A DNA stretch of 32,000 nucleotides from an uncultured delta proteobacterium (GCA_963765595.1 CAVXXE010000004.1:45902-77901); one strand, 5' to 3'; positions 3,482 through 28,591 are shown, numbered from the stretch's first letter. Notes: a model not told the origin generated them from the letters alone. Numbers and translations: made by a program.

Positions 3482-5422
3482 ATGGCGTTAAACAGGAAGA
3501 TAGCATATATCGATCTGACCACAGGTGATGTTCAGACAAAACCGATTCCGCTTGGGGTCCGAAAGAAGTTTTTGGGTGGCCGGGGTCTGGATGCATACCT
3601 GCTCTACAACCACACCAAGAAAGGTTGTGATCCACTGGGTCCTGACAATGCCCTTATTATCAGCGGCGGAATTCTGACGGCCACCTGTGCGTCGGCCACC
3701 TCAAGAACGCACGTTATGGCCAAATCGCCTTTGACCGGCATGTTGGGCAGCGCGAATATGGGTGGTTTTTTTGCACCTGAATTGGCCTGGGCCGGTTTTC
3801 ACCACCTGGTCATCAAAGGTAAAGCCAAAAATCCCTCTTATATCTATATCCACAACGGCGAGATCGAGATTCGCGAGGCCCATGACATCTGGGGTCAATC
3901 GGTGACCGACGCCCAGTGGGCGATCCGGCAGGAACTGGGGGATGAGGAAGTCAAAAGTTGCGTGTGTGGGCCGGCCGGAGAGAATCTGGTGCGGTTTGCC
4001 AACGTCATGACGGGGGTTAAAAATTCCGCCGGCCGAACGGGGATGGGATGTGTCATGGGATCCAAGAATCTCAAAGCCGTGGCGGCGCGCGGCACCATGG
4101 ACATCGAGATTGCCCGCCCGGTCGAAGCGCTGGAATACAACAAACGCTTTATCGAGCAGATTACCAGCGCCAAGGTGAGTCAAACCCAGGGCACCCTGGG
4201 AACGCCCTTTATCTGGGGTGCGACCAATTCCTGGGGCGGGGTCAGGACCCGCAATTTTCAATACAACCAGTGTGAATACTCTGATGATATCGAGCCGGAG
4301 CACATCGATGAGATTTGTGAAGAGACTATGGGGCCCTATCACATGACGGGCTGCTTCGGCTGCCAGGTGCATTGCCGGGCGCAGTATAAAATTCCGCACG
4401 GCCCCTTGGCGGGAAGATATGATGAAGGTCCGGAATACACCTCTTTGGGTGCTTTCGGCGCGGAAACGGACACCCCCCGGGCGCTGACGGTTCTCACCGG
4501 CAATCACCTGGTCGATCAGTTCGGAATGGACAATCTCGAAACCGGCAGCCTGATTTCCTGGGCCATGGAGTTATACGAGCTGGGCATTATCACTGACAAG
4601 CAGACCGATGGGCTGGATTTGAGCTGGGGCAATGACGAGGCGGTTCTTGAAATGGTCGAACGGATCGCTTACCGCAAAGGCTGGCTGGGAGACACCTTGG
4701 CCGATGGCGGGATTCCGGCTGCAAAAAAGATCGGTAAAAAATCTTTTGATTATCTCATCCAGGTCAAAGGGATGAGCAATCTGCATTCAGATGAAAGGGC
4801 GACGCCCGCCCTGGCACTCAATGTTGCCACGGCATCCAGGGGATCGGACCATTTGAGGAGTCGGCCGGCCATTGATCTTTATCATCTGCCGGAAGAGGTT
4901 CTCAGAAAGATTTACAGCAATCCGGTCTCCTATGACGGGCCGTTGAGCTCCGAGCATACGGAATACATCGGCAAACCGTGGCAGGTTTTCTGGCAGGAAA
5001 ACTTATATATGGGGGTCGATTGTCTGGGTATCTGTAAGTATCATACCGTATTTCTGGGTGTCACGCTGCCGACTTTCGAAGAATGGTCCAAGGTGCTGTA
5101 TTACAATACCGGCATCGAAATGACGCCCGAGGAGATCTGGCAGGCCTCACGACGGTGCAACATGATCGAAAGGCTCTTCAACTTAAGGGAGGGCTTGAAA
5201 CGAAACGATCTGGAAAAAGGCGATATGTTGAACCACCGCTATTTCGATGAGCCCTGCAGAAGGGGTGCGCTCGATGTCGTCGGTACCATGATCGATAAGA
5301 AAAAATTTATCAAGATGGTAGATGAATTATACGGACATCAGGGGCTGGATAAAAACGGTGTTCCTAAACCGGAGACCTTGCAAAGCCTGGGCCTGGAAAA
5401 CGAACCCTCCCATTTGCTATAA
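3482..5422 (+). CDS. aor: Aldehyde:ferredoxin oxidoreductase family protein (tungsten/molybdopterin, [4Fe-4S])
   Basis: 646 aa. AOR-type N-terminus (IAYIDLTTG...KKFLGGRGL). Cluster motif C-x2-C-x3-C (TGCFGCQVHCR) plus a distal Cys (GVDCLGICKY). Pterin-binding D-x-x-G-x-D/C motifs (DQFGMDN, DCLGIC). Confidence 0.9.
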   Translation: MALNRKIAYIDLTTGDVQTKPIPLGVRKKFLGGRGLDAYLLYNHTKKGCDPLGPDNALIISGGILTATCASATSRTHVMAKSPLTGMLGSANMGGFFAPELAWAGFHHLVIKGKAKNPSYIYIHNGEIEIREAHDIWGQSVTDAQWAIRQELGDEEVKSCVCGPAGENLVRFANVMTGVKNSAGRTGMGCVMGSKNLKAVAARGTMDIEIARPVEALEYNKRFIEQITSAKVSQTQGTLGTPFIWGATNSWGGVRTRNFQYNQCEYSDDIEPEHIDEICEETMGPYHMTGCFGCQVHCRAQYKIPHGPLAGRYDEGPEYTSLGAFGAETDTPRALTVLTGNHLVDQFGMDNLETGSLISWAMELYELGIITDKQTDGLDLSWGNDEAVLEMVERIAYRKGWLGDTLADGGIPAAKKIGKKSFDYLIQVKGMSNLHSDERATPALALNVATASRGSDHLRSRPAIDLYHLPEEVLRKIYSNPVSYDGPLSSEHTEYIGKPWQVFWQENLYMGVDCLGICKYHTVFLGVTLPTFEEWSKVLYYNTGIEMTPEEIWQASRRCNMIERLFNLREGLKRNDLEKGDMLNHRYFDEPCRRGALDVVGTMIDKKKFIKMVDELYGHQGLDKNGVPKPETLQSLGLENEPSHLL

Positions 5423-5485
5423 TTTGGTTGTTGGTTATTAGTTATTTGGTTTGCGGTTAATCGATATGCGGAACATTAACCATCA
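5423..5485. repeat. Degenerate tandem heptamer tract starting at the AOR stop codon
   Basis: Read in 7-nt units from 5423: tttggtt gttggtt attagtt atttggt ttgcggt taatcga tatgcgg aacatta accatca. Confidence 0.55.
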
Positions 5486-5555
5486 GAGGCTCAATCACCA
5501 ATGGGATGGATTCGAACTCTGGAATGTGAGCAGATTTCTAATAACAATAAACAAA

Positions 5556-5569
5556 TCCGCCGCGGCGGA
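5556..5569. promoter_or_regulatory. Perfect 14-nt palindrome TCCGCCG|CGGCGGA just upstream of the ferredoxin SD
   Basis: Two adjacent 7-nt units that are reverse complements of each other. They sit in the same 7-nt register as the tract that starts at 5423. SD TAGGAG follows at 5571-5576 and the ATG is at 5584. Confidence 0.4.
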
Positions 5570-5583
5570 TTAGGAGATAATAA

Positions 5584-6084
5584 ATGGCTAAGATTTTATA
5601 CATAGATCACGAGAAGTGCACCGGCTGCCGACTGTGTGAGCTTGTGTGCGCTGTTTCGCATGATGGGATATCCAATCCTGCCCGCAGCCGTATCCGGGTG
5701 TTGAAATGGGAGGCCGAAGGTCTTTATATCCCGATGACCTGTCAGCAATGTCAGGATGCACCCTGTCTGAATGTCTGCCCGGTCAAGGCCATTTCACAAG
5801 ATGAGCAGTTGGGCCGTGTAAGCGTTGACTACAATACCTGCATCGGCTGCCGTTCATGTGTCAGCGTATGCCCTTTCGGTGCCATGAATTATAATACCAC
5901 CGATCGGCGGGTCCTCAAGTGCGACGTCTGTGACGGCGATCCGCAGTGTGTCCGGTTCTGTGACGTCAAGGCCGTCGATTTTATTGAGGCCGGTGAAGTG
6001 GCCATAATAAAGAGCAGAAAAGCCGCCAAACGGGTATCGGAAGCAGGTAAAACGGCTGCTGATTTGGAGGCTCAGATGCGGTGA
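5584..6084 (+). CDS. Polyferredoxin, four [4Fe-4S]-type cysteine motifs; probable electron-transfer subunit of the AOR
   Basis: 166 aa with CTGCRLCELVC, CQQCQDAPCLNVCP, CIGCRSCVSVCP and CDVCDGDPQCVRFC. Directly downstream of the AOR on the same strand. Confidence 0.85.
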   Translation: MAKILYIDHEKCTGCRLCELVCAVSHDGISNPARSRIRVLKWEAEGLYIPMTCQQCQDAPCLNVCPVKAISQDEQLGRVSVDYNTCIGCRSCVSVCPFGAMNYNTTDRRVLKCDVCDGDPQCVRFCDVKAVDFIEAGEVAIIKSRKAAKRVSEAGKTAADLEAQMR

Positions 6085-6150: not shown

Positions 6151-6756
6151 CTAAACCGCCTTCAACGAGGAGTCATTTTTGGGGTGATTTTTCGAATCGT
6201 CTCCCCAGCGTCTGAAGAGATCGTGTTCGATGCCCATAAAGTCGAAAATCTTTCCGATGGTTTGATCGATGATATCATCGATGGTTTTGGGCATGTGGTA
6301 AAAGGAGGGGACCGGGGGAAGAATATGGGCGCCCATGTCAGCCGCCATGGTCATCAAACGCAAATGTCCCTTGTGCAGTGGGGTTTCCCTAACGACCAGC
6401 ACCAGTTTGCGCTTTTCTTTCAAGGTTACATCGGCGGCTCTCACCAAAAGATTTTCATTGTAGGAATTGGCAATTCCCGACAGCGTCTTGATGGTGCAGG
6501 GCACCACCACCATGCCTGCGGTCAAAAAGGAACCGCTGGCCAGGGATGCCGCCACATTTTTGTGGTCGTAAACATAATCGGCCATTGCCTTTACATCAGC
6601 AGGATCATAATCCGTTTCGATTTCAATATTCAGCTCACCGGATTTTGAAATAATCAAATGCGTTTCATAGTCTGTTTCTTTAAGTACACTCAGCAATCTG
6701 ACGCCATAAGTTGCCCCGCTGGCACCGGATATTCCGACGACGATTCGTTTTGGCAT
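6151..6756 (-). CDS. ubiX: Flavin prenyltransferase UbiX (prFMN synthase)
   Basis: 201 aa. N-terminus RIVVGISGASGATYGVRLL and the conserved body (VVPCTIKTLSGIANSY, LKEKRKLVLVVRETPL) are typical of UbiX/Pad1. Confidence 0.9.
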   Translation of the reverse strand: MPKRIVVGISGASGATYGVRLLSVLKETDYETHLIISKSGELNIEIETDYDPADVKAMADYVYDHKNVAASLASGSFLTAGMVVVPCTIKTLSGIANSYNENLLVRAADVTLKEKRKLVLVVRETPLHKGHLRLMTMAADMGAHILPPVPSFYHMPKTIDDIIDQTIGKIFDFMGIEHDLFRRWGDDSKNHPKNDSSLKAV

Positions 6757-6903
6757 GGGTTTCCTCTTGTTTATTTTATCTGGTTGATTAGAGCTTTCTT
6801 ATTTTGGGACATGGATTGCACAGATTGATATACACTTCTACTTATGATTCAAGACAAAGAGTTCCTAAAATCCGTGTGTGTCGGTACAAATCTGTGTCCT
6901 ATT

Positions 6904-8112
6904 CTAAAAGATTTTCAAAGCCGTTTTAGCCACTTCTGCAGCAAACTCGGGATCCTCCATGTTGGCGTCAACTTCTATTATTTCAACATCAGGGTTGAGT
7001 TTTTCCCGCAGCACCTGGGTAAATAAACGATCCTCTGCTGGATCATGGGTGTCGTTGCCGGGCAGATCCGCTGACGACCAGCCGTTCAGAGGGATTATGA
7101 CGGTTACCGGTCCCTTGGACTGGTTGAGTTTTTCTGCAAAGACCCCGGCCACCGCCTTGAGTTCCTCGGGCGACAGCCGGATCCAGGTCCGAAGTTTGTC
7201 CAGATCGAACTTTCGTCGTTCGTGATATTCGGGTTTATACCTGGATCGAGCCGGGGTCATGTGGTTTACACTGCAAGTCGAGATAAGTTGGGGCAGACCC
7301 AATTTGCCGGCGGTTTCCAGGCGATGGGGACCGGCATCCCGCATAAACCCGAAGAGGTGTTCACCAACACCTCCCGGGGCCAGGTCGATAACGCCTTGGA
7401 AGAATCCTTCGGCAATCATAGCCTCCATGGCGCGGTCGCCGATGCCGGATGCTGAAAATCCGATAATCTGGTAACCTTCCTGCTCCAGCGCCGTCCGTAC
7501 CGAGCTGGCGCATTTTTCACAGGGACCCAGCATGGTCAGAGCAATGGCTTTGCCTTTTTCGCCCTTCGGCGATGCGATATCATCGGCAGCCATGCCTGCC
7601 AAAGCGTGAGCTGCGCGATCCATGACATTTTTTAGCAGATCGGAAACGCCGGATATCTCGACTACCGAATGGAAAAGGGCAATATCCCCGGTTCCGATGT
7701 AGCGGGTGGAAAGACCGGGCAGGGCGGCCGTAGACGAGATCATCACTTTGGGAATCCCAAACGGCAGGGAGCGCATGATTTCGGTGCCCATCAATGAACC
7801 GGTGGATCCCCCCAGAGCGATAACACCGTCCAGCTTATCCTGGGCTAAGAGCTCAGCCGCAATCCGAGAGCCGCCGGCCATCATGATGTTGGTGATCCGG
7901 GTTCGATCGCGGGAACTTTGAATTTCTTCAAAACTGCCGCCGCCGGCCTCCGCCACGCGGTTCGCGGGAATATCGATGCCTGCGATATCGCTTCCCCGCC
8001 CGGAAATATCCATCAGAATCGGCACAAGTCCGATGGCACTCAATTTTTCCTTGAGATATAATGTCTCCAGCCCCTTGGTATCCAGGGTAGATATGACTAG
8101 AACGGTTTTCAT
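6904..8112 (-). CDS. UPF0261 / Tm-1-like ATP-binding domain protein (copy A)
   Basis: 402 aa. N-terminus VLVISTLDTKG. Conserved block GIPKVMISS...GDIALFHSV and second-half block SASGIGDRAMEAMIAEGFFQGVIDL are shared with ORFs 16563..17789 and 18001..19203. Confidence 0.8.
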   Translation of the reverse strand: MKTVLVISTLDTKGLETLYLKEKLSAIGLVPILMDISGRGSDIAGIDIPANRVAEAGGGSFEEIQSSRDRTRITNIMMAGGSRIAAELLAQDKLDGVIALGGSTGSLMGTEIMRSLPFGIPKVMISSTAALPGLSTRYIGTGDIALFHSVVEISGVSDLLKNVMDRAAHALAGMAADDIASPKGEKGKAIALTMLGPCEKCASSVRTALEQEGYQIIGFSASGIGDRAMEAMIAEGFFQGVIDLAPGGVGEHLFGFMRDAGPHRLETAGKLGLPQLISTCSVNHMTPARSRYKPEYHERRKFDLDKLRTWIRLSPEELKAVAGVFAEKLNQSKGPVTVIIPLNGWSSADLPGNDTHDPAEDRLFTQVLREKLNPDVEIIEVDANMEDPEFAAEVAKTALKIF

Positions 8113-8168
8113 AATAATTTATTCACTCATGAGCGCTATGTCCCATCAATTTATTCTGTACTTGAAAA

Positions 8169-8224
8169 GAAAATCCGAAATCCGAATTTCGAAACTCGAA
8201 ACAATAATCAAATTATAAATTCAA
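8169..8224. repeat. Degenerate tandem heptamer tract
   Basis: gaaaatc cgaaatc cgaattt cgaaact cgaaaca ataatca aattata aattcaa, in the spacer between the ligase stop and the UPF0261-A start. Confidence 0.6.
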
Positions 8225-8432
8225 ATGACCTAAACAAAAGATGCATCTTCTATGTAGGGCCGGCCACCCTGCCGGCCTCACTGCGGAAAGCAGTCACGGT
8301 GGGCTGCTTTACTCCTTTCCGCCGGCAGACACTGTTGGTTCTTCCACGGTTTTTTCCGGAAACCGTGAAAAAATCCAGTTCATCCTGTTGATCCTGTCCA
8401 ATAATAAACTAAAAAGAATCCTTTCCTTAAAT

Positions 8433-10088
8433 TCAGGTTTCTTTTGCCACTTTTTCCGCGATATTCTTTTTCAAGGTCTCTTTATTCACTTTTCCCGAGT
8501 CACCGACGGCGGGGAATTCGTCCACGACTTCGAGGCGTTCGGGAAGTTTATACATGGCCAGTTTCTTGCCTTTGAGAAATTCAACCATTTCTTCAAAGCT
8601 GAAATCCTGCCCGCCTTTGGCAATTACGTAAGCGCAGGTCCGCTCACCCATTTCGCGGTCCGGATAGCCCACGACGGCCACAGAGGCTACCTTGGGATGG
8701 TCATTGAGCAGACCTTCGATTTCCGCCGGATATATATTTTGACCGCCGCGAATGATCATGTCCTTGGCCCGGCCCAGGATCCACAGGCATTCCTGGTCGA
8801 ATTTAACGATATCGCCGGTGGTGGTCCAGCCTGCGGGATCGAAAACAGTGGCGGTTAATTCTTCGTCACGATAGTATCCGGCCGGTGCATGGGGGCCTCT
8901 GAAATACAGGATTCCGGGTTCGCCATCGGGTACCGGTTCGCCGGTATCCTTGTCCAGCAGACGCACCTTGTTGCCCGGCAGCATCCGCCCGACGGTCCGG
9001 CGGCGAAGATCTTTAGAATCTTCCACCCGGCAGCCCGAAACCGATCCCATATCCTGGGTTCCCAGATCACTGGTGATATTGGCACCGAAGGCCGTTTCGG
9101 CTTCTTCGGCGATCTGGGGCGAAAGATAGCCGCCGGCGGAACGGATAAAGCGCAAGGAACTTAAATCGTACTTGGAGGCGTCGACTTCGAGCATTCTGAC
9201 CAAATGGGTCGGCACCACACCGATGGCAGTGGCTTTCTCCTTTTCGATCAGGGCTAAAGCGGCCTCCGGCTCAAATTCCTCCAGCATGACCGTCTTGGCG
9301 CCGGCCAGGGGAGCGGCAAAATAGGTGAGGGTACCGGCGGCACCACCGGCATGGGGTGCAATCGCCATGGTGGTATCTTTGTGGGTAAGACCCCAGATAT
9401 CCACGCGGCCTTTTGAGGTACAGACGCGGGGGGCCGTGGGCCATTCCACCAGTTTGGGTATGCCGGTGGTTCCCGATGTCGTTGTCAGCAAGGCCACATC
9501 GGAAATTGGGTCCAATCGGCGCGCATTGAGGGTATCTTCGTCAATGGGCTTATCAGCGGCAGCCTGCGCTAATTGGGTTAGCGAATAGGTTCCCTCCGGT
9601 GCGCCTTCCGGAACTTCGTCGTCGAAAAGAAAAATCTTTTCCAAATGCGGAAATTTTTTCTGAAGTTCCCGGTACATTTCAAGATAATTGAAGTTGCGAT
9701 ATTCATTTAGAATCACAACGGCGGCGGCCTCGGTTCTTTCCACCATGTAAGTCAGCTCTCTTTCCCGCAAATACGGATAGACGGTCAGAGAAATAAGCCC
9801 GGCCCTTTCAGCAGCGATGCGTGCCAGGAACCCGTACACACTGTTGGGTGATTGAATGATGATTCGCGACGATTTAGGTATACCCATTTCAACCCATGTA
9901 TAGGCAATGGCATCCACCAGTTTTTTAGCCTCGGCCCAGGTGACGCGGTACTTGGAATCCACCAGGGCCTCCTGGTCACCCAATTCCCGGGCGTTTCTTT
10001 CCCAGAAATCATAAAAAAGCTCCCGGGTCCAGTATCCTTCATTAAAAAATTCGTCCACCATTTCTTTTTTATAGCGAATCGGTTTCAA
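8433..10088 (-). CDS. AMP-forming aryl/acyl-CoA ligase (adenylate-forming superfamily; EntE/AliA-like N-terminus)
   Basis: 551 aa. Motifs TTTSGTTGIPKLV, GDIVKFDQECLWILGRAKDMIIRGGQNIYPAEIE and a C-terminal SGKVNK lysine. TTG start at 10086-10088 with SD AAGGAG about 7 nt upstream. Confidence 0.85.
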   Translation of the reverse strand: MKPIRYKKEMVDEFFNEGYWTRELFYDFWERNARELGDQEALVDSKYRVTWAEAKKLVDAIAYTWVEMGIPKSSRIIIQSPNSVYGFLARIAAERAGLISLTVYPYLRERELTYMVERTEAAAVVILNEYRNFNYLEMYRELQKKFPHLEKIFLFDDEVPEGAPEGTYSLTQLAQAAADKPIDEDTLNARRLDPISDVALLTTTSGTTGIPKLVEWPTAPRVCTSKGRVDIWGLTHKDTTMAIAPHAGGAAGTLTYFAAPLAGAKTVMLEEFEPEAALALIEKEKATAIGVVPTHLVRMLEVDASKYDLSSLRFIRSAGGYLSPQIAEEAETAFGANITSDLGTQDMGSVSGCRVEDSKDLRRRTVGRMLPGNKVRLLDKDTGEPVPDGEPGILYFRGPHAPAGYYRDEELTATVFDPAGWTTTGDIVKFDQECLWILGRAKDMIIRGGQNIYPAEIEGLLNDHPKVASVAVVGYPDREMGERTCAYVIAKGGQDFSFEEMVEFLKGKKLAMYKLPERLEVVDEFPAVGDSGKVNKETLKKNIAEKVAKET

Positions 10089-10274
10089 AGTAGATCTCCT
10101 TCTTTGGATTCTTAGTAAGCGTTCACAGGTTCATTGCTTTTTCCTGGATTTTACACCTGCCCTGAATTTGTCCCAGAAATCCTTGTCCGTATCCTTTAAG
10201 TAAATAAAATACCTTGTAAATTATTACGTTGTGGATCTACGAACTCTGTGGTGGATATTAATTTACAATGCTGA

Positions 10275-10307
10275 GGCCCATAGCATGAAAATGAACTGCT
10301 ATGGGCC
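10275..10307 (-). other. Perfect 11-bp stem hairpin (GGCCCATAGCA / TGCTATGGGCC, 11-nt loop) between the UbiD-like stop and the ligase start
   Basis: Read directly from the sequence. It starts 16 nt downstream of the UbiD-like stop on the minus strand. No U-run follows, so it is not a canonical terminator. Confidence 0.45.
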
Positions 10308-10322
10308 ATCATCTATGGGCTA

Positions 10323-11744
10323 TCAGCAGACAACTTTATCCAATCCCAGTTCCGACCAGCGGCCCTTGACTCTTTCAACGATTTCAGGATCCAATTCGAT
10401 GGGGATCGGTTTATCTTTCCAGTCATAGGGGATGGTGGCGTCCAACAGCAGCCTGCCGGTGATTTCTCTAGCGTTGATGGGTAGGGATGGATCCAGCGGT
10501 GTGGATCGTCCGCGTTTGATGACCTGAGAGCGATTGGGCTGAAAGCGGAAGCTCAAGGCGTACATGACCCGGGGGATATCCCAGGGATCGATGTCTTCAT
10601 CGACCACGATCACGGTTTTAAGCCCATAGGCACCCATCTCGGTAGAGATGGCGGCGGTCAGGACCTGGTCCGCGTGTCCGGGATACATCTGCTTAATTGA
10701 AATAATGGCCAGAAAACGGCCGGAGCCTTCCGGTGGGCAGTAAACGGCTTTTAATCCGGGAATTTTCATGGCCAGCAGCTGCTGCCACAGGGTGGCGCCG
10801 TAGGAGAGTGCCATGGTCATATGGGTATCGGTGACAGCCCGGCCGACGGTGGTTCCCCACAAAATCGGGTTGTTTCGGTGGGTAACGCATTTGACATCGA
10901 TAAAATTACGCGGATCGGTACCGACGCCGGAATAATAGCCGGTATACTCGCCAAACGGTCCTTCTTCCATAAATTTGTCGGCATCGACTTCGCCTTCGAT
11001 GACGATCTCTGCATGGGCCGGTATGGGCAGATCGACGGATTCTCCCTTGACCACTTCAACGGCCTCGCCGCGCAGTGCTCCGGCGACATCGTATTCCGAA
11101 GTAAAGGCGGAAATGCGGGCGGCTCCCAGGATAAAGAGCAGCGGGTCGCAACCGATCACCGAAGCCACCGGCATGGGTTTGCCCATGGCCTGGTATTTTT
11201 TCAGCATGATGTCGGCGTGTTTGCCCTTGATGAACTGGGTGCCCATCTTGTCCTTGCCAAGTAGCTGGCTGCGGTAGGTTCCCAAGTTAACCCAGCCGGT
11301 CTCGGGATCTTTGCTGATGATAAAATGGGCGGTGCCGATAAAACGTCCGCCATCCAGGGGATACCACTGGGGAACGGGGAATTTATAAAGATCGATATCA
11401 TCACCGCTTAAAATATTTTCTTTGCAGGGTGCCGCTGAGGCCGCCACTTCCTTGGGCGGTATCAGGTTCTCACCCAGTTTTGCCCATTCAACATAAAGAT
11501 CGACAAGGGTGGATTCGAGGGGCAGACCCATGATCAAAGCCAGCCTTTCGGTGGTGGTGCAAACGCTGGTGATCACCGGTGTATCATAATCTTTGACGTT
11601 TTCGAACAGCAGGGCCGGGCCGCTTTGTTCTTCATTTAATTTGGCGATATGCGACAGCTCCAGGTTCCAGTCGACTTCCGCCGTAATTCGTTTGCACAGC
11701 CCCACTTCTTCACCTTTGGCAATGAAATCTCTCATGTTTTTCAT
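10323..11744 (-). CDS. UbiD-family (de)carboxylase (prFMN-dependent family; resembles the large subunits of phenylphosphate-carboxylase-type enzymes)
   Basis: 473 aa. N-terminus MRDFIAKGEEVGLCKRITAEVDWNLELSHIAKLNEEQSGPALLFENVKDYDTPV follows the UbiD pattern (LRDF...L.RI...VD..LE...I......GPALLFEN). Length and body are consistent with the family. ubiX lies in the same gene string. Confidence 0.88.
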   Translation of the reverse strand: MKNMRDFIAKGEEVGLCKRITAEVDWNLELSHIAKLNEEQSGPALLFENVKDYDTPVITSVCTTTERLALIMGLPLESTLVDLYVEWAKLGENLIPPKEVAASAAPCKENILSGDDIDLYKFPVPQWYPLDGGRFIGTAHFIISKDPETGWVNLGTYRSQLLGKDKMGTQFIKGKHADIMLKKYQAMGKPMPVASVIGCDPLLFILGAARISAFTSEYDVAGALRGEAVEVVKGESVDLPIPAHAEIVIEGEVDADKFMEEGPFGEYTGYYSGVGTDPRNFIDVKCVTHRNNPILWGTTVGRAVTDTHMTMALSYGATLWQQLLAMKIPGLKAVYCPPEGSGRFLAIISIKQMYPGHADQVLTAAISTEMGAYGLKTVIVVDEDIDPWDIPRVMYALSFRFQPNRSQVIKRGRSTPLDPSLPINAREITGRLLLDATIPYDWKDKPIPIELDPEIVERVKGRWSELGLDKVVC

Positions 11745-11847
11745 TTCGATCCTTTTCTCCTCTTTTAATTTGGTGTTATTGTGATTATTACGTTTGTTGA
11801 GTAAATTGAGTTATATTTCACCCTAGTTGAACGACGCTCAATTAGGT

Positions 11848-11889
11848 GGTACTCGGTATTGGGTATTCGGCATTGGTTCCGCATTCCCT
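11848..11889. repeat. Degenerate tandem heptamer tract
   Basis: ggtactc ggtattg ggtattc ggcattg gttccgc attccct. Confidence 0.6.
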
Positions 11890-11967
11890 CCGGGGTTTAG
11901 GCCCCTATGGCCCCTACGGCTTCCGGCGCGTAGATAGAGCCTACAGCTCGGAGAGCCCGGAGGCCGT

Positions 11968-12023
11968 CTTCCCACTTCCAATACCTCTGCCCTTGGCCTT
12001 TAACCTTGAACCCGGAACCTTTT
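11968..12023. repeat. Degenerate tandem heptamer tract
   Basis: cttccca cttccaa tacctct gcccttg gccttta accttga acccgga acctttt. It ends 4 nt before the stop codon of the upstream minus-strand gene. Confidence 0.6.
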
Positions 12024-12027
12024 TCCT

Positions 12028-13098
12028 CTAGCTCGGAAGCTTGATCCGCTTCATCGCCTGTTCCATCAACAACTGATAACCGGTCTTTTTGCCGAGTACC
12101 GATTCCTTCTTGCGCTGGCTCCAGACGGTTTCCGGGCGTGCCTGAACAATGAAAATATTTTCCGGAAACGAAAAATCCTTGTCGATGGCCCACTCGATAT
12201 CCATGGCGCGGCCGTAGTGGGTTTCTATGGTTTTGGCTGTTTTGACCAGTTCTTTTATTTCCTGGTCCTCAAGACAGCAGGTGCACTGCATGTCTGCGGC
12301 TACATCGGCGTCGACGGTTTCTCCTTTTTCGACGTCGAAGACACACTCGATGTGTTTGGTGGAGATGGTCCGCTCATTGATCTCCCCCATGACCTTGTCG
12401 ACGACGAATTTGTCCGGGTTGACGGAGCCGGACACGACCGTTTCTCCCAAACCCCAGCTTCCTTCAAGCACGACTTTGGAAATATCCCCGTCGGTGGGAT
12501 TGAGGGTGAACATCACCCCCGCGGCCTTTGAGTTCACCATTTTCTGAACACCGACACTGATCAGTACCTTTTCATGGGGGAAGTCATTTTTAACCCGGTA
12601 GCTGATGGCCCGCGGCGTATATAGGCTGGCCCAACATTTTCGCACACTTTCATTGACCCGCTCAGCACTCGTTATCCAAAGGTAAGTGTCCTGCTGTCCG
12701 GCAAAACTGGCCGTAGGCAGATCTTCCGCGGTCGCGCTGGATCTTACCGCTACCGGAAGGGCATCAACCTCGCATTTTTTGCAAAGCAGAGAATATCCGT
12801 CCGCGATCGCCTTTTGGACATCATCAGGGATGACCGCCGTCCTGATCATTTCCTGGATTTTTTCGGCGACCTGGTTAAGCGCATCGATATTATCGGGATC
12901 CAGATCCGCCAGGAGGCTGAAAATTGTATTATTTATCCCGGCTTTCTCCATAAATACCGCATAACTGCTGGTGGTGACGGCAAATCCTGGAGGAACCCGA
13001 ATACCGGCATTGATCAACTCTCCCAGACTGGCATTTTTACCGCCAACCACCGGCAGCAAACTTTTATTCAGTTTGCGAAAATTCAGGATTAAATCCAT
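12028..13098 (-). CDS. PEP/pyruvate-binding (ATP-grasp, PPDK_N-type) protein; phenylphosphate-synthase small (about 40 kDa) subunit-like
   Basis: VVGGKNASLGELI and VAVRSSATAEDLPTASFAGQQDTYL match the nucleotide-binding N-terminal domain of PEP synthase. I place the start at the internal ATG 13096-13098 (MDLILNFRKL...) because SD AGGAGA lies 7 nt upstream. The longer track ORF to 13194 adds a basic, non-homologous extension. Confidence 0.8.
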   Translation of the reverse strand: MDLILNFRKLNKSLLPVVGGKNASLGELINAGIRVPPGFAVTTSSYAVFMEKAGINNTIFSLLADLDPDNIDALNQVAEKIQEMIRTAVIPDDVQKAIADGYSLLCKKCEVDALPVAVRSSATAEDLPTASFAGQQDTYLWITSAERVNESVRKCWASLYTPRAISYRVKNDFPHEKVLISVGVQKMVNSKAAGVMFTLNPTDGDISKVVLEGSWGLGETVVSGSVNPDKFVVDKVMGEINERTISTKHIECVFDVEKGETVDADVAADMQCTCCLEDQEIKELVKTAKTIETHYGRAMDIEWAIDKDFSFPENIFIVQARPETVWSQRKKESVLGKKTGYQLLMEQAMKRIKLPS

Positions 13099-13146
13099 TA
13101 TTATTCTCCTGCAGAATCTCCGAAATCTTTTATATTGCTTCCAAGA

Positions 13147-13170
13147 CCCCCTCCCCGGTCGGGGAAGGGG
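13147..13170 (-). other. GC-rich intercistronic hairpin (CCCCTCCCC-ggtc-GGGGAAGGGG)
   Basis: Read directly from the sequence. It lies in the 125-nt spacer between the two synthase-like genes. Confidence 0.4.
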
Positions 13171-13223
13171 TGCGAAGGTTGCAGTATTACTCATCTCTAC
13201 AAGGGTACTCGAACCGGTGCTGT

Positions 13224-15086
13224 TTAACTCGCTCTTTCGACAATCGTGACAACACCGGTATCACCATCGACTTTGACAATATCACCGGTTTTAATAGCGG
13301 CGGTGGCGATACCGCAGCCGGTTACCGAAGGCACACCATATTCACGGCAGACAATCGCCGCATGGCTGGTCAGCCCGCCGATGTCGGTTACCGCGGCCTT
13401 GATATTGGTGAAGACCGGGGCCCAGGATGGATTGGTCGACGGGCAAACCAAGACCTCACCCGGCTGCAGGTCGACAATGTCCTTGAGCCGCTTGAGAACC
13501 CGCGCCGGACCTTCAGCCACGCCGGCCGAAGAGGCAAAACCCTTGATTTCAGACATGTCCGCACCTGCCGTCGTGTCGACCCCTTTGAGCCATTCCTTGA
13601 CCTTGTCGGTGGTGATCCCCCACAGCATGATGGTGAACGGCTCGGCCACTTCTTCGGGTGGCACGCCCAGGGCCGGTGTCGGATTCCATTCGACGGCCGC
13701 CTCGAGGATCTTTCTGCGTTTCGCGGCCTTGGATTTATAGTATTCATCCCTGACCGGTATATCCACGCCCAGAGCCCAGGCGGTTGCAACTTCAGTCAGA
13801 AGCTGCGGAATTTCGTAACGGTTGAACATAAATATGTCGTCGACATCATCAATCATTCCGTTGTCAACCAGGACCGATCCAATTTGCCTGATTTTTTTAT
13901 ACCAAATGGTATGGAACCAATGCTCTACCCAGAAGAGATGATCCTCGGCATAGCGGTAGATGGTTCTGATGGTGTTATAGGCATCATCAAAGGCTTTGCG
14001 GTCGTCGTCGGTTTGTATCATCTTGCGGTACTCGGCGACAATTTCATTGCGTTCCTTCTCGATCCCATCCAGGGAGCGCTCGATGGTTTCGCCTTTTTCA
14101 AGCCTTTCGACATAACCTTTGATATAGCTATAGGGAATGTCCAAATCAGTCAGCCAGCTGCCTTCGTGATGGTACCAGCCGCTGCCACAGGATACGTAAA
14201 ACCAGGGGTCACTTGACTTTTCATATTCGGCCAGCCAGTTTTTGCCGGCTTCTGATTGTTGAAGTTCAGCAATCTTCTCGGCGGCGGATTTTGTGCTCTT
14301 GAGAATGCTGCCCACGCCATCCGCCGAAACTGCCAGCCGGGCCAGGCGGCAAAGCTCTTCTTCGGGGCGGAACATGGAAACATAGGCGCCGGCCACCATC
14401 TTGCCGATGGCACTTTCGCTGATCCCGGGAAAAAGCTTACGGGACACATCGCCAAACATCAGATAGGCCAGATAGGTCAAGTTGAGCATTTCGAAATGAT
14501 ATTGCCAACCTTTGAACATCTGGTTGACCAGCTTGTCGAAGGACTCGATCAGGTCGTAACCTTCATAATACCCCGTGGGGGCCGGAAAAACCTTGTCATC
14601 GGGGACGTATTTAGGCAATTCCGCGGGGATCTGAACGGCCCTCATTTCTTCCCCCAGGGCCTTGAATTTCGTCAGCCATTTGTCCCACAATTCATCGTAG
14701 TGTTCAAAGACATAAAATACCCGTTTTTCAAAATGGGCGGCTTTTTCAGCGATAATTTCATCGGGCGGCGGGGCAATCGCGCAGATATACAGGTAGCAGC
14801 CCACCAACCGCTGGGCAATTCCCTGGGCCGGAGGGATGCAAAATACGCGGGTCGTATACTGTGACAATGAAATCTGCCAGGCTTCCTGAAAGATTAAATC
14901 CAGCGGCGGCAGTGGTTCGGGTGCGTGGATTTTGTCCGCATACCAGAATTGGGCCTTTTCCCAATCGGCTCGATCCTGTGAGAATAGGTGATGGGTGGGA
15001 TACATTTCCTCCCAGCCTTCAAGCTCCGGGGGGACTTTAAACTCGTGAGGGTCCGGAAATCTGCCTTCATTATCTGCCATTTTCAT
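13224..15086 (-). CDS. PEP-utilising enzyme, mobile phosphohistidine-domain protein; phenylphosphate-synthase large (about 70 kDa) subunit-like
   Basis: 620 aa. The C-terminal swivel-domain motif DIGGLTSHAAIVCREYGVPSVTG carries the catalytic-type His (about residue 575 by my count). The large N-terminal region is not PEP-synthase-like. The true start may be the second ATG at 15080, which has AGGAGA 6 nt upstream. Confidence 0.8.
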   Translation of the reverse strand: MKMADNEGRFPDPHEFKVPPELEGWEEMYPTHHLFSQDRADWEKAQFWYADKIHAPEPLPPLDLIFQEAWQISLSQYTTRVFCIPPAQGIAQRLVGCYLYICAIAPPPDEIIAEKAAHFEKRVFYVFEHYDELWDKWLTKFKALGEEMRAVQIPAELPKYVPDDKVFPAPTGYYEGYDLIESFDKLVNQMFKGWQYHFEMLNLTYLAYLMFGDVSRKLFPGISESAIGKMVAGAYVSMFRPEEELCRLARLAVSADGVGSILKSTKSAAEKIAELQQSEAGKNWLAEYEKSSDPWFYVSCGSGWYHHEGSWLTDLDIPYSYIKGYVERLEKGETIERSLDGIEKERNEIVAEYRKMIQTDDDRKAFDDAYNTIRTIYRYAEDHLFWVEHWFHTIWYKKIRQIGSVLVDNGMIDDVDDIFMFNRYEIPQLLTEVATAWALGVDIPVRDEYYKSKAAKRRKILEAAVEWNPTPALGVPPEEVAEPFTIMLWGITTDKVKEWLKGVDTTAGADMSEIKGFASSAGVAEGPARVLKRLKDIVDLQPGEVLVCPSTNPSWAPVFTNIKAAVTDIGGLTSHAAIVCREYGVPSVTGCGIATAAIKTGDIVKVDGDTGVVTIVERAS

Positions 15087-15317: not shown

Positions 15318-15332
15318 ATAAGTTTTACTTAT
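15318..15332. promoter_or_regulatory. LysR-type T-N11-A palindrome ATAAG-TTTTA-CTTAT
   Basis: Perfect 5-bp arms, ending 39 nt upstream of the LysR GTG start. It lies inside the 285-nt divergent spacer shared with the synthase operon. Confidence 0.35.
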
Positions 15333-15371: not shown

Positions 15372-16331
15372 GTGCTGAACTTTAACCAACTGCGGGTGTT
15401 TTACCACGCTGCAAAAAATTTGAATTTTACCATGGCGGCCAATGAGCTCTTTATTACCCAGCCGGCGGTGACATTTCAGATGAAGGCTTTTGAAGAGTTC
15501 TGCAATTTGAAACTTTTTAAAAAGAGGGCACGGCGGTTGTTTTTAACTGATGAGGGCCGGGCGCTTCTTGAATACGCTGAAAAAATTTTTAAATATGAAA
15601 AAGAAATCGAAAATGTCATCGAAGACATGCGGGAACTCAAACGAGGTGTCCTCAGTCTGGGTACCACCAAAGCCTATGCCCGCTATTTCATGCCGCTGAT
15701 GCTAAGCACCTTTCACCAAAAATTTCCCAAGATAAAAATCCAACTGAATGAAGGCAGTTCCCTGGACATGACCTATAGTCTGCTTGATTTTAAAATCGAG
15801 GTGGCCGTGGTCGCCAAAGCCGGGGAGCTGCCCGAAGTTGATTTTTTTCCTTTCAGCAAGGAAGAAATGGCGATCATCGTGGCTCCAGACCATCATTTTA
15901 CAAAGAAAAGGTCCATCGCTTTTAAAGACCTCGCCAATGAGCCATTCATCATGAAGGAGCAAGGCTCGGGAACCCGCAAATTGGTTGAAGAATTATTTTC
16001 AGATGCAGACTGCGCACCGGATATTCTGATGGAAACCAGCAACACCGAATTTATCAAGCAGCTGGTCCAGCGTGGTGAAGGAATTTCTTTTTTAGTGAAA
16101 GAAGCGGTGGCGGCTGAGATTGAGGAGAAAAAATTGGCCCAGGTGGCGCTGAAAGGCCGCCCACTTTTTTTAGACGTCAGCATTGCCTATCTTAAAGGTC
16201 AGGTGCTTTCACCGCCTGCCAGGGCATTCGTGGACACTCTCAGAAATTTGAAAACCGATGATGAGGAAATGCACCCCATGGGAATCGGGTTGATGATGGC
16301 CAAAATTCTTGCCCAACGGAAAACCAGATGA
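15372..16331 (+). CDS. LysR-family transcriptional regulator
   Basis: 319 aa. N-terminal HTH LNFNQLRVFYHAAKNLNFTMAANELFITQPAVTFQMKAFEE followed by a LysR substrate-binding domain. GTG start. Confidence 0.85.
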   Translation: MLNFNQLRVFYHAAKNLNFTMAANELFITQPAVTFQMKAFEEFCNLKLFKKRARRLFLTDEGRALLEYAEKIFKYEKEIENVIEDMRELKRGVLSLGTTKAYARYFMPLMLSTFHQKFPKIKIQLNEGSSLDMTYSLLDFKIEVAVVAKAGELPEVDFFPFSKEEMAIIVAPDHHFTKKRSIAFKDLANEPFIMKEQGSGTRKLVEELFSDADCAPDILMETSNTEFIKQLVQRGEGISFLVKEAVAAEIEEKKLAQVALKGRPLFLDVSIAYLKGQVLSPPARAFVDTLRNLKTDDEEMHPMGIGLMMAKILAQRKTR

Positions 16332-16457
16332 CGGATGACTGAGAATCTTGAATGCGAAAGTCGGAATGCGGAAGGCGGAATAGAGAAACAGAGGACAGAT
16401 GACGGATGAGGGCAGGGAGCATGGCGCATGGGGCATAGAGCAGAGCTCGCTTTTCGC
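16325..16457. repeat. Purine-rich degenerate heptamer array (array D)
   Basis: Units from 16332: cggatga ctgagaa tcttgaa tgcgaaa gtcggaa tgcggaa ggcggaa tagagaa acagagg acagatg acggatg agggcag ggagcat ggcgcat ggggcat agagcag agctcgc ttttcgc. By hand count about 71 of 119 positions are identical at lag 7. A 14-nt direct repeat, cagatgacggatga, occurs at 16325 and 16396. Confidence 0.7.
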
Positions 16458-16562: not shown

Positions 16563-17789
16563 TCACTTTGCGTGTTGTATTAGCTTTTGCTGAGCCTCGA
16601 TGATGGCCCGGCTAAACATGGGATCGTTGATATGACAGGGCAGGGTCCTCAGGTTGGCTTGGTTATCTAATATTTTCTCCAGCATTTTAACAAATAGTGG
16701 CGGGGCAGCGGGATCATGCAAAGGGCCGTCTGGGTGGTCGAAAGCCGAGAACCCTTTCATCGGCACCAGGATTTTCCAGGGTCCCTGCGCCTGATTGCAT
16801 AATTCGCCTATGATTTTGGCCAGCGCTTCTATCTCGTTCTGTTGGGTACGCACGACGGTTATGGCGGCATTGTGGACATGGTAAGGGCGGCCGGGGAAAC
16901 TGCGTTCGACGGTCTCCAGAGGGCCGGTGACCAGAAAATCGATGTTGCCGGGGATAATAATAGTGGGAATACCCCGCTTCAGGGCGACGGTCCCGCGCGC
17001 CGGCCCGGCATCGTAGTCTCCGCCAAAATGATGATCCGCCAATTCGTGCAACGACAGGTCTACCAGGGCAGCTACCTTTTCCTGGGCCAGCATTTCTTCC
17101 ATGGCCTTCCCGCCGGCCCCCACCGTATGGAAGATGATCACTTCATTGCCTTTTTCTTCCAGGGTTTGGCGAATGTTTTGGACGCACGCTTCGGTGGTGC
17201 CCAGGGTGGATATAAACACCAGTGGTTTTTGTTTTGAATCATCCTTGCCGGCGGTGTGTCGCAACATGCCGGCCATTGCCAGCGCACCGTTGCGAAGAAC
17301 TTTTTTGGTGACCCGGTTAAGGCCCGTCAGATCGCAAACCGAGTGCAGCATGAAAATGTCTTTGGTGCCGACAAATGCGCGGGTGTCGCGGGATGCCATG
17401 GTGGAAATCATCACCTTGGGAACGCCGATGGCAAGGTTGCGCATGACTGCCGTGCCCAGGGTAGTGCCCATGGAACCGCCCAGTCCGATAACGCCCTGGA
17501 TTTCACCCTGATGATATAACTCCCGGGCGCATTTGACAGCCCCGGTGGTCATGATTTTCAAGGCCCTGCCTTCGTGGCCGATGTTTTGAACCTCTTTCAG
17601 CGGTTTGCCGCCGGCTTGAGCGACCTTTTCCCGTGTGATGTCTACCGGTACCGGACTTGCGCCTCGGATGCCGGCATCCATAATTTTAACCTGAATCCCC
17701 TCTTTATTAATACAATCGGCGATATACAGGGCTTCCTGGCCTTTGGTGTCCATGGTAGCGACTAATAAAGCGACAGAGCGATGTGGCAA
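16563..17789 (-). CDS. UPF0261 / Tm-1-like ATP-binding domain protein (copy B)
   Basis: 408 aa. LLVATMDTKG, GVPKVMISTMASRDTRAFVGTKDIFMLHSV and HTVGAGGKAMEEMLAQEKVAALVDLSLHELADHHFGG. TTG start at 17787-17789 with SD GGAGG 5 nt upstream. Confidence 0.8.
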   Translation of the reverse strand: MPHRSVALLVATMDTKGQEALYIADCINKEGIQVKIMDAGIRGASPVPVDITREKVAQAGGKPLKEVQNIGHEGRALKIMTTGAVKCARELYHQGEIQGVIGLGGSMGTTLGTAVMRNLAIGVPKVMISTMASRDTRAFVGTKDIFMLHSVCDLTGLNRVTKKVLRNGALAMAGMLRHTAGKDDSKQKPLVFISTLGTTEACVQNIRQTLEEKGNEVIIFHTVGAGGKAMEEMLAQEKVAALVDLSLHELADHHFGGDYDAGPARGTVALKRGIPTIIIPGNIDFLVTGPLETVERSFPGRPYHVHNAAITVVRTQQNEIEALAKIIGELCNQAQGPWKILVPMKGFSAFDHPDGPLHDPAAPPLFVKMLEKILDNQANLRTLPCHINDPMFSRAIIEAQQKLIQHAK

Positions 17790-17889: not shown

Positions 17890-18000
17890 TCTTGAGTCGA
17901 TGGTTTGCGATAAATTCTCCCTAAGCAAGTGTTCACAGGTTCAAGGTTATTATTCAAATATGACATTAATACTTAGACTATAATTACTCGATATTTAAGT

Positions 18001-19203
18001 TTATTTATGTATCATTGCATCCATCAAAGTGGCCGCAATCTCGCCAAAGGCGCTGTCGTTGATGTGCCGATCCACCTCTTGAATTTCGATTTGAGGATCG
18101 AGAACCTCTTTCAGCCTCCCGGTAAAAATTAAGTTCATTTCAGGATCATATAAAGGTCCGCCTTGCCGGTCGGCCTCGGACCAGCCTCTGCCAGGAATCA
18201 GCACTTTTATGTTGCCTGCATCGCGGTTCAGTTTTTCCGCCAGTTGATTTGCCAGACAGGTGGTTTCTTCAATGTTGAGCCGGATTGCGGAGCGGAAGTC
18301 GTAGAAAAAGATTTTTCGATTTTTATATTCGTCCGGAATGTTCTGTCGGGTAAATTCCAGAACCGCACAATCCAGCCCTCCCGGAACGACCAGCCGGGGG
18401 ATCGATCTGCCGGGAACCGGTTCGTACCGTTGCGGTCCGATGGCACCGCAATAGCCATCCAGCAGATGATCCGCCAGCTCGTGGGTGGCCAGGTCCAGAA
18501 TGCCGTCAAAATACCCTTCCGCCGCCAGTTCTTCCATGGCCATGCCGCCGGTGCCGTTGGCATGGAAGGCAACAACTTCATACCCCAGCCTTTCCAGGGC
18601 CTTGCGGGTGGCTTCAGCCCCGGCAGTGATAAAACCGAAAAAGGGCAGGGCGATGCGTTTTTTTACTTCAGCGGGTTGCCATTGACTTCGAACCATGCCG
18701 CATATGGCGGCGGCGCCTTTATCCAGGATGTTGCCTGAAATGCTGTTGACACCCAGCAGATCCGCGACGCTGTGGATCATGGTAATGTCTTTAGTGGAGA
18801 CGATATCGGCCATGTTGCGTGAGGCCACGGTGGAGATCATCACCTTGGGAACACCCAAGGGCAGTTCGCGCATAATGGTGGCGCAGATATGGGTTCCCGT
18901 ACCGCCGCCGGCTGAAATTATGCCGCTGATTTTGCCGTCCCCATGCAGTTTATTAATTTGTACTTTGGCCTCGTGCAGCATGGCATTTATTATATTATCT
19001 CTTCCCTCAGGTATGTCCGACGCGTTTTCCGTGACATTTTGAAACAAATCTAGATCCACCGGCACCGGTGATGGCGCCCGGGTTCCGACGTTAATCGTCA
19101 GCGTCCGTAATCCCCGTTGCGCTATCTGCTCTTTTAAAAACATGTGTTCTTCTGCTTTAGAATCGAAGGTTCCAACGACAGCGATGGCAGAATCAATTTT
19201 CAT
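18001..19203 (-). CDS. UPF0261 / Tm-1-like ATP-binding domain protein (copy C)
   Basis: 400 aa. IAVVGTFDSKA, GVPKVMISTVASRNMADIVSTKDITMIHSV and HANGTGGMAMEELAAEGYFDGILDLATHELADHLLDG. Confidence 0.8.
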   Translation of the reverse strand: MKIDSAIAVVGTFDSKAEEHMFLKEQIAQRGLRTLTINVGTRAPSPVPVDLDLFQNVTENASDIPEGRDNIINAMLHEAKVQINKLHGDGKISGIISAGGGTGTHICATIMRELPLGVPKVMISTVASRNMADIVSTKDITMIHSVADLLGVNSISGNILDKGAAAICGMVRSQWQPAEVKKRIALPFFGFITAGAEATRKALERLGYEVVAFHANGTGGMAMEELAAEGYFDGILDLATHELADHLLDGYCGAIGPQRYEPVPGRSIPRLVVPGGLDCAVLEFTRQNIPDEYKNRKIFFYDFRSAIRLNIEETTCLANQLAEKLNRDAGNIKVLIPGRGWSEADRQGGPLYDPEMNLIFTGRLKEVLDPQIEIQEVDRHINDSAFGEIAATLMDAMIHK

Positions 19204-28528: not shown

Positions 28529-28591
28529 CCAAATCGCTCCTTTTCTCTAAAGATTTGGATGGTTCTATCAGTTTTTTTCAGTTTTTGATTT

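Follow-up and report, generated by a model that had tools for sequence, protein, structure and literature searches.

Gene content and proposed function of a putative phenol phosphorylation and carboxylation cluster with UPF0261 paralogues in an uncultured delta proteobacterium

Gene content of the locus

Anaerobic phenol carboxylation is a textbook pathway which, to our knowledge, is known in detail only from Thauera. A gene cluster related to this pathway was analysed in a 32,000-nucleotide stretch of DNA from an uncultured delta proteobacterium (GCA_963765595.1 CAVXXE010000004.1:45902-77901), referred to below as the window, with positions counted from its first letter. Six co-oriented minus-strand genes were found in the order given by the original prediction, which had been made from the sequence alone: the PpsA-like and PpsB-like subunits of a split phosphoenolpyruvate (PEP)-synthase type kinase, one UbiD-family carboxylase, an aryl-acid ligase, a UPF0261 protein and UbiX (Table 1). 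The open reading frame (ORF) list and the translations revealed that all six are intact and full length, each with its own Shine-Dalgarno sequence, and the family of each gene was confirmed by Pfam and NCBIfam scans. The divergent LysR regulator reported at the head of the string was recovered as well. The UPF0261 gene and ubiX do belong to the string; two more UPF0261 genes lying just past LysR, outside the reported span, had been missed, which makes three paralogues in the window.

The predicted absence of a second UbiD, a PpcD-type HAD phosphatase, PpcC and PpsC was borne out within the window. tblastn with query proteins from the Thauera aromatica locus (L050) found no homologue of PpsC, PpcA, PpcC, PpcD, the ORF7 UbiD, the riboflavin-kinase-like protein or the Nudix protein in the 32 kb, and queries from Desulfatiglans anilini found none of HcrABC (4-hydroxybenzoyl-CoA reductase). 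Apart from the one UbiD gene all matches had E>0.2, and over the whole window the PpcC and PpcD queries both gave E>2. No ORF longer than 47 aa was present in the intergenic gaps of the window. The spacers among the six genes measure 125-320 nt. No RNA family of Rfam was detected within the window, and promoter and terminator scans gave background level only.

Table 1. Genes and features of the cluster and of its LysR-side neighbourhood
Feature	Position	Strand	Evidence
PpsA-like phenylphosphate synthase alpha, 620 aa	13224..15086	-	PF00391 at residues 541-611, NF006153
PpsB-like ATP-grasp subunit, 356 aa	12028..13098	-	PF01326 PPDK_N, E=1e-119
Single PpcB-like UbiD-family carboxylase, 473 aa	10323..11744	-	TIGR02724, three UbiD Pfam domains
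DhbE/EntE-like aryl-acid AMP/CoA ligase, 551 aa, TTG start behind GGAG	8433..10088	-	AMP-binding, AMP-binding_C
UPF0261-a, 402 aa, carboxylase-associated MarK/Tm-1 family member	6904..8112	-	PF06792, PF23189
UbiX flavin prenyltransferase, 201 aa, maker of prenylated flavin for UbiD	6151..6756	-	NF004685, TIGR00421
LysR-family regulator, 319 aa, divergent	15372..16331	+	HTH_1, LysR_substrate domains
UPF0261-b, 408 aa, close MarK homologue, predicted ATP-to-ADP phenolic-hydroxyl kinase	16563..17789	-	9MPY match
UPF0261-c, 400 aa, third paralogue	18001..19203	-	PF06792, PF23189
Palindromic T-N11-A box ATAAGT-N3-ACTTAT, candidate LysR site	15318..15332		read directly in sequence

The split dikinase

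The PpsA-like protein carries GGLTSHAAIVCREYGVP; it consists of a substrate-binding region and, at its C-terminal end, a PEP-utilizers swivel domain whose nearest match was rifampin phosphotransferase 5FBS. It scored 856 bits against NF006153 (cutoff 578). His575 was invariant in the 12-sequence alignment (A3) that was used for the locus scan; a 36-sequence alignment (A2) was dropped as too diverse. The PpsB ORF spans 12028-13194 (388 aa), and its real start is placed at Met33 (13098) because GGAG lies 8 nt upstream of that ATG. The orthologues are likewise called at 356 aa, in accordance with the length first reported. PpsB carries VGGKNASLGEL and RSSATAEDLPTASFAGQQDTY, and the motifs quoted earlier for both proteins are present in the translations. 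The pair has the two-subunit composition of a phenylphosphate synthase, an about 70-kDa phospho-histidine swivel type protein and an about 40-kDa PPDK_N type protein. The stimulating CBS-domain subunit PpsC was not found within the window, and the D. anilini cluster also has none.

The PpsA-like protein is 62% identical to Ppsα (02052) of D. anilini, 42-43% to PpsA of Thauera aromatica and 44% to PpsA of Geobacter. Among the 1215 homologues that passed the thresholds the best 120 were all 81-93% identical, and those carrying names came mostly from Desulfobacterales and other Deltaproteobacteria metagenome-assembled genomes (MAGs). When representatives at 50% identity were considered, the nearest clusters beyond its own stood at 45% or less. 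An exact look-up of the protein returned no record, and the members of ten such representatives were metagenome proteins only. In a distance-based neighbour-joining tree calculated without bootstrap, the window and D. anilini proteins formed one clade, set against a clade of Thauera, Geobacter and actinobacterial IclR-linked kinases of the Cre/Hpe-like kind. The subclade of the window is 75-93% identical internally.

The split dikinase also occurs in another arrangement. Eleven actinobacterial loci (L042, L043, L047, L053, L059, L062, L069, L070, L072, L073 and L081) have the reversed order PpsB-PpsA beside IclR; they carry no UbiD, UPF0261 or ligase, and their PpsA proteins form a subclade of their own. 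This fits the CreHI/HpeHI type of kinases for alkylphenols and hydroxyphenylethanones.

The carboxylase, UbiX and the ligase

The UbiD-family protein scored 513 bits against TIGR02724, the phenylphosphate carboxylase beta model (cutoff 469; Thauera PpcB itself reaches 1132), and 224 bits against the alpha model TIGR02723 for PpcA (cutoff 565). A second UbiD paralogue of the PpcA kind was not found in the window by NCBIfam or tblastn and could sit elsewhere in the genome. The protein shares 85% identity with D. anilini Ppcβ2 (02059) and 49% with Thauera PpcB, and 5168 homologues passed the thresholds. All three domains (PF20695, PF01977 and PF20696) are present. Mapping by motif showed that N153..R158, H176, E246/E250 and E261-GPFG-E266 are kept, the roles of the Mn2+- and prenylated flavin mononucleotide (prFMN)-binding residues and of the Glu-Arg-Glu residues being taken from Fdc1 (PMC4947166). 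The position of His176 is Arg in Thauera PpcB and is not His in PpcA, and was given little weight.

UbiX scored above cutoff with NF004685 (263 bits, cutoff 188) and with TIGR00421 (248 bits), and is 76% identical to D. anilini 02056. With three domains, the motifs and a UbiX partner, the UbiD protein has the features of a prFMN-dependent enzyme.

No NCBIfam model reached its cutoff for the ligase. Among solved structures it comes closest to 2,3-dihydroxybenzoate-AMP and salicylate-AMP ligases (6E8O, E=3e-74); its nearest relatives are the hydroxy-aryl-acid adenylating enzymes DhbE, salicylate-AMP ligase and EntE, and not benzoate-CoA ligases. With D. anilini 02058 it shares 79% identity.

The UPF0261 paralogues

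The sole enzymatic activity known for UPF0261 is that of MarK, reported in JBC in 2025 as a homodimeric kinase which transfers phosphate to the phenolic hydroxyl of acetovanillone and of related aromatics, with ADP as product (PMC12624787). All three paralogues of the window have both the N-terminal and the C-terminal domain of the family and a Lys at the position of MarK K16 / Tm-1 K20. UPF0261-a shares 33-34% identity with the other two. It matches MarK (9MPY) over the full length (E=3e-54) and keeps the ATP-site T-D-T-K; its other pocket positions are Asp at 225 (Gly225 in MarK), His at 283 and Leu at 304.

UPF0261-b matches 9MPY at 340 bits (E=2e-100, residues 6-404) and keeps K16, G195, T196, H219, F283 and H304, with I285 changed to Val and H348, the ketone contact, to Phe. 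The phenol-binding set G195/H219/H304 is thus complete in UPF0261-b; it reads G, H and Tyr in UPF0261-c and G, Ser and Leu in UPF0261-a. UPF0261-c matched Tm-1 (177 bits) better than MarK (148 bits) and is the counterpart of D. anilini 02061. The two upstream paralogues, of which UPF0261-b is MarK-like, probably represent further one-ATP kinases for phenolic compounds. UPF0261-b stands beside LysR in L001-L003 too, where the UPF0261-b/-c pair is also kept.

The tree placed the in-cluster UPF0261 copies in one clade, apart from the MarK/UPF0261-b and the UPF0261-c clades. This clade spans the window type (after the ligase) and the Geobacter/betaproteobacterial type (between UbiD and PpsC), all with Asp at MarK position 225 in common; the Geobacter/betaproteobacterial copies keep His219.

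The phe cluster of Desulfatiglans anilini

A D. anilini protein (P0317, 85%) turned up in the UbiD search, and its locus (L083) is the published phe cluster of D. anilini DSM 4660, H567DRAFT_02049-02061 (Xie and Müller 2018, PMC6114531; Xie et al. 2020, PMC7500099). The gene sizes of 468, 552, 403, 193, 615, 358 and 404 aa agree with locus tags 02051-02061 in the proteome table. Both loci have LysR divergent from UbiD, ligase, UPF0261 and UbiX, a module kept in the same order, together with Ppsα/β and an upstream UPF0261, and neither has PpcA/C/D or PpsC in the cluster. In addition to the identities given above, UPF0261-a is 71% identical to 02057, LysR 57% to its counterpart and UPF0261-c 57% to 02061.

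The phe cluster has been examined by reverse-transcription PCR, proteomics and an assay in which extracts of phenol-grown cells formed phenylphosphate (PMC6114531). The later proteome showed 02059, 02058, 02057, 02052 and 02051 at 4- to 50-fold higher levels with phenol than with benzoate, aniline or 4-aminobenzoate. Peak areas of replicate 1, listed for 4-aminobenzoate / aniline / benzoate / phenol, were 1.5e9 / 8.8e8 / 8.8e8 / 1.8e10 for 02059, 8.5e8 / 8.0e8 / 6.6e8 / 1.26e10 for 02058, 1.4e9 / 1.7e9 / 7.4e8 / 7.4e9 for 02052, and 0 / 5.0e7 / 5.3e7 / 2.5e9 for the UPF0261 protein 02057, the last being about 50-fold on phenol. No phenol induction was seen for 02061. The authors called the function of 02058 unknown and never mentioned 02057.

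The original prediction held that neither substrate nor composition could be assigned from known systems. This does not stand, as the phe cluster has the same module at 57-85% identity and is phenol-induced; a characterised clade with the same gene set, the finding which that prediction had itself named as telling against it, is largely what was found. The parts list had also been termed non-canonical, and a single UbiD (ppcβ) with no PpcC (ppcγ) in the cluster is the pattern of strict anaerobes already described for G. metallireducens and D. anilini (PMC6114531).

The two loci also differ. ppsAB lies directly upstream of UbiD in the window and downstream of three 4-hydroxybenzoyl-CoA-reductase-like genes in D. 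anilini; those three genes and the phenylacetate-CoA-ligase-like 02049 are absent from the window, which has the MarK-like UPF0261-b as an extra gene relative to D. anilini. A small CheY-like response regulator is encoded between UbiD and ligase in L002 (14726-15241) and by D. anilini 02050, which was about 6-fold higher on phenol; the window does not have it.

Carboxylase partners across related loci

A scan of species-representative genomes gave 80 loci; ORFs were called in 84 loci and assigned through BLAST against query proteins of the window, Thauera and D. anilini. The loci of the scan include Thauera aromatica (L050), Azoarcus (L052), Geobacter MAGs (L041, L045) and Syntrophorhabdus MAGs (L031-L033). 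The count of cluster designs was restricted to those 47 loci in which a PpcB-like UbiD is followed by 2.5 kb or more of sequence. Nine of these are of the Thauera type, having PpcA/C/D and never UPF0261 or ligase, and 35 have UPF0261 and/or ligase directly after UbiD and never PpcA/C/D (UPF0261 only in 12, ligase only in 4, both in 19). Partners of both kinds occurred together in 0/47 loci, and three had neither. Fisher's exact test for this exclusion gave p=1.6e-7, computed on loci that are not phylogenetically independent.

The partner type tracks the UbiD phylogeny. The neighbour-joining tree of UbiD separated true PpcB, where the next gene is PpcD, a Geobacter/betaproteobacterial single-UbiD clade, and a tight clade of window and D. 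anilini proteins. In betaproteobacterial loci with closely related PpsA, three carboxylase designs substitute for one another. The window-type UbiD-ligase-UPF0261 module is paired with the other PpsA clade in L031-L033 and L055, as are UbiD and ligase in L036 and L049. The long contigs L001 and L002 both carry two UPF0261 genes, LysR, PpsA, PpsB and UbiD; L002 continues with ligase, UPF0261 and UbiX, and in L001 UbiD is truncated and the remainder missing. The window has PpsAB, one PpcB-like UbiD, ligase, UPF0261, UbiX and no PpcA/C/D, the composition of the strict-anaerobe cluster; its gene content and order match L083 and 34 other loci. By its gene content the window is another member of this already noted cluster type. 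The new elements are the clean split between clusters with PpcA/C/D and clusters with UPF0261/ligase, and the tie of the latter to the first UPF0261 activity (2025).

Regulatory sequences and repeats

The divergent spacer between LysR and ppsA is 285 bp long with 32% GC, and the divergent position of LysR is kept in L001-L013, L018 and D. anilini. The palindromic box of this spacer (Table 1) also occurs in L001, L010 and L031, lying within the LysR-to-target spacer in L001 and L010, and variants of the form ATAAG-N5-CTTAT are present in L003, L032, L036 and L049. The box is a candidate LysR binding site.

An exact 13-nt repeat, TGAACCTGTGAAC, was found on the minus strand at 10121-10133 and 17931-17943, upstream of the ligase and of UPF0261-b respectively; it extends to about 23 nt at 87% identity, with a chance expectation of 0.03 matches. 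Being absent from all 84 related loci, it is probably a repeat specific to this genome and no conserved operator. No sigma-54 promoter fit was seen by eye in this motif.

Short tandem repeats, mostly of 7 nt (for example GAATGCG, ACAGATG and AAATCCG), fill nearly every spacer of the cluster, with blocks at 8171-8194, 8373-8397, 11848-11920, 16350-16409 and 19325-19379 of the window. The blocks 16325-16406 and 19307-19374 are inverted copies flanking the two upstream UPF0261 genes. The closest relative, L003, has similar heptamer arrays (3351-3430, 9577-9669 and 14923-14943).

Proposed pathway and its alternatives

On balance, the window probably encodes a strict-anaerobe pathway of phenol activation and carboxylation toward 4-hydroxybenzoyl-CoA, orthologous to the D. 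anilini phe cluster, as far as homology and gene content can indicate. The ATP-dependent activation and carboxylation of a phenolic substrate, as originally proposed, is supported. PpsB would bind ATP and pyrophosphorylate His575 of PpsA, from which the phosphoryl group would pass to phenol (phenol + ATP -> phenylphosphate + AMP + Pi), by analogy with the orthologue whose activity was shown in D. anilini extracts. The PpcB-like UbiD, with prFMN made by UbiX, would then carboxylate phenolate at the para position to 4-hydroxybenzoate, and the DhbE-like ligase would adenylate and thioesterify the hydroxybenzoate, pulling the unfavourable carboxylation. UPF0261-a, as a member of the MarK family, may handle the aryl phosphate in place of PpcA/C/D, and it might pass the phosphoryl group of phenylphosphate to ADP while phenolate is released to UbiD. 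LysR would control the divergent promoter. The role of UPF0261-a can be stretched further. UPF0261 would then be the missing phenylphosphate carboxylase component of strict anaerobes, running the MarK reaction in reverse (phenylphosphate + ADP -> phenolate + ATP) and feeding a single prFMN-dependent UbiD. This wider proposal is a speculative one and is regarded as unlikely. If true, the reverse kinase would replace PpcA/C/D and recover one ATP, the ligase serving as an alternative or additional ATP-driven pull, and it would account for the ability of energy-limited sulfate and iron reducers to meet the cost of phenol carboxylation.

Several observations weigh against the phenol pathway as set out here. 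Genes for a 4-hydroxybenzoyl-CoA reductase are missing from the window. Extracts of D. anilini never yielded phenylphosphate carboxylase activity (PMC6114531), and Ppcβ2 together with the Ppcβ of the ani cluster converted phenylphosphoamidate and not phenylphosphate (PMC7500099). A second D. anilini UbiD paralogue, 03563, which is encoded elsewhere, was about 10-fold phenol-induced in the proteome, so the single UbiD may be an artefact of looking at one locus. UPF0261-a has Ser in place of the MarK His219. The long spacers and the ribosome-binding site of each gene leave co-transcription unproven. The PpsA subclade of the window consists of metagenome-assembled genomes throughout, and at 62% identity to the D. 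anilini enzyme its substrate could differ. The dependence among the loci, stated above with the exclusion test, belongs to the same side.

The last of the PpsA points leads to the same chemistry acting on some other phenolic compound or an arylamine, for instance catechol, hydroquinone, a cresol or aniline, instead of phenol. The distance of the internally close PpsA subclade from its one studied relative would allow this, related dikinases are known for aniline (PasAB), 4-cresol (CreHI) and hydroxyphenylethanones (HpeHI) (PMC7500099, PMC9618137), Ppcβ2 of D. anilini also participates in aniline carboxylation (PMC7500099), and three UPF0261 paralogues with differing pocket residues suggest several phenolic substrates. 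The UbiD, however, is 85% identical to the phenol-induced Ppcβ2, and the whole UbiD-ligase-UPF0261-UbiX module is shared with D. anilini, in which phenol induces it but aniline, 4-aminobenzoate and benzoate do not. Identity between Ppsα and Pasα, the aniline enzyme, is only 27%, and between Ppcβ2 and the ani-cluster Ppcβ 52% (PMC7500099); these low identities place the window on the phenol side. Another substrate is held to be improbable. A somewhat smaller chance is given to a cofactor role, in which UPF0261-a supplies or matures the prenylated flavin (for example dimethylallyl phosphate for UbiX) and replaces the ORF7 UbiD-like, riboflavin-kinase-like and Nudix proteins. The exclusion pattern across loci suits such a replacement equally well: in nearly all single-UbiD clusters UPF0261 lies beside UbiX or with only PpsC between, Thauera-type clusters having ORF7, UbiX, the riboflavin-kinase-like gene and Nudix instead, and relatives of the window cluster have riboflavin-kinase-like and flavin-reductase genes close by. 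The loss of the phenol-binding His219 in UPF0261-a is in line with it too, but the Geobacter/betaproteobacterial in-cluster copies retain this residue, and no activity other than on aromatic hydroxyls is known for the family (PMC12624787). Moreover, UPF0261 and the aryl-acid ligase fill the same slot after UbiD in betaproteobacterial clusters with closely related PpsA, which points to the substrate or product side and not to the cofactor.

It is very unlikely that there is no working pathway in this organism, the genes being decaying, juxtaposed and not co-expressed, or UbiD and UbiX forming a catabolic hydroxyarylic-acid decarboxylase. The long spacers full of heptamer repeats, the decayed neighbours (a split sulfatase and a flavin reductase cut short at about residue 60), the IS21, IS200-like and toxin-antitoxin genes of the window and the truncated UbiD of L001 could be taken in this sense, as could the 318 bits that UbiD scores against the decarboxylase model VdcC. 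That score is far under the cutoff of 650, and a phenol kinase beside a phenol-releasing decarboxylase would make little sense. The six genes are intact and full length with ribosome-binding sites, and their order, kept across many genomes with 80-95% identity of PpsA, UbiD and ligase, indicates purifying selection.

The phenol pathway is hence the reading preferred here. No reconstitution of the carboxylase has been achieved for strict anaerobes such as Geobacter and Desulfatiglans, nor has its energy cost been accounted for (PMC6114531); the cluster split and the MarK link name concrete candidate proteins for such a reconstitution. The numbers of PpsA and UbiD homologues, the named ones being mostly from Desulfobacterales and Deltaproteobacteria MAGs, suggest that sulfate reducers of sediments are commonly able to turn over phenol.

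Flanking DNA

A gene for a tungsten-type aldehyde:ferredoxin oxidoreductase (AOR) and an AorA-like Fe-S subunit gene (3482-5422 and 5584-6084, plus strand) converge with ubiX, with an IclR gene upstream at 2239-3012. The pair (3482-6084) was considered as a BamBC-type benzoyl-CoA reductase and rejected, as it is closer to the true AORs 9MQX/1AOR (about 300 bits) than to BamB (203). It was not counted in the system for this reason and because L002 is the only other locus where it adjoins the cluster; it may have a link to the metabolism of aromatic aldehydes or acids.

A flavin-reductase-like remnant lies at 19513-19863 (minus strand). Its first 60 or so residues are 84% identical to an intact 159-aa gene which in L001 is upstream of the UPF0261 pair, with no similarity thereafter, and it is probably truncated or frameshifted. 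The sulfatase at 18-1488 (minus strand) is split into overlapping ORFs, 18-851 with the C-terminal and 670-1488 with the N-terminal Pfam part, and is probably a frameshifted pseudogene. A 436-aa protein without Pfam match (21665-22975) adjoins a right-handed beta-helix (NosD-like) protein (23555-24529), both on the minus strand. The region 25906-31294 is of mobile or accessory character with GC 0.39-0.49, below that of the cluster; it contains IS21 istA/istB (27050-28528 / 26295-27053), a Phd/YefM-YoeB toxin-antitoxin pair (28901-29454), a weak HicA-like ORF (29596-29982) and an IS200-like Y1 transposase fragment (30980-31294).

Comparison with known systems

Thauera aromatica PpsABC/PpcABCD (L050) shares with the window the split PEP-synthase-type kinase with its conserved histidine, the PpcB-type UbiD and UbiX. 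It differs in PpsC, PpcA, PpcC and PpcD, all absent from the window, and in that Thauera-type clusters have ORF7, a riboflavin-kinase-like gene and Nudix and are never found with UPF0261 or ligase. The Geobacter MAG loci (L041/L045) come nearer in having one PpcB-like UbiD followed by UPF0261 and UbiX, with a UPF0261 of the same clade as the operon copy of the window; they have PpsC and no ligase, their UbiD (50%) and PpsA (44%) belong to other clades, the latter deeply separated, and their UPF0261 keeps His219.

The ani cluster of D. anilini is similar in its split dikinase PasAB, one UbiD and an AMP-forming ligase, and its carboxylase needs no γ or δ subunit (PMC7500099). By the figures of that study, which were used to place the ani set, the window proteins group with the phe versions instead.

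MarK (Saro_1862, PDB 9MPY) of Novosphingobium aromaticivorans is approached by UPF0261-b, which keeps its ATP lysine and most of its phenol pocket; the window proteins have Phe or Ala at the position of its ketone-binding His348. In an aerobe, MarK acts on acetovanillone together with a biotin carboxylase, whereas the family members of the window belong to an anaerobic phenol/UbiD cluster. The putative benzene carboxylase cluster abcDA-bzlA-ubiX, set apart here by its description, has no kinase and no UPF0261 and uses other UbiD and ligase families (PMC13101534). It resembles the window in placing a UbiD carboxylase beside an aryl-CoA ligase and UbiX, and both share the layout of carboxylating first and then trapping the product as a thioester.

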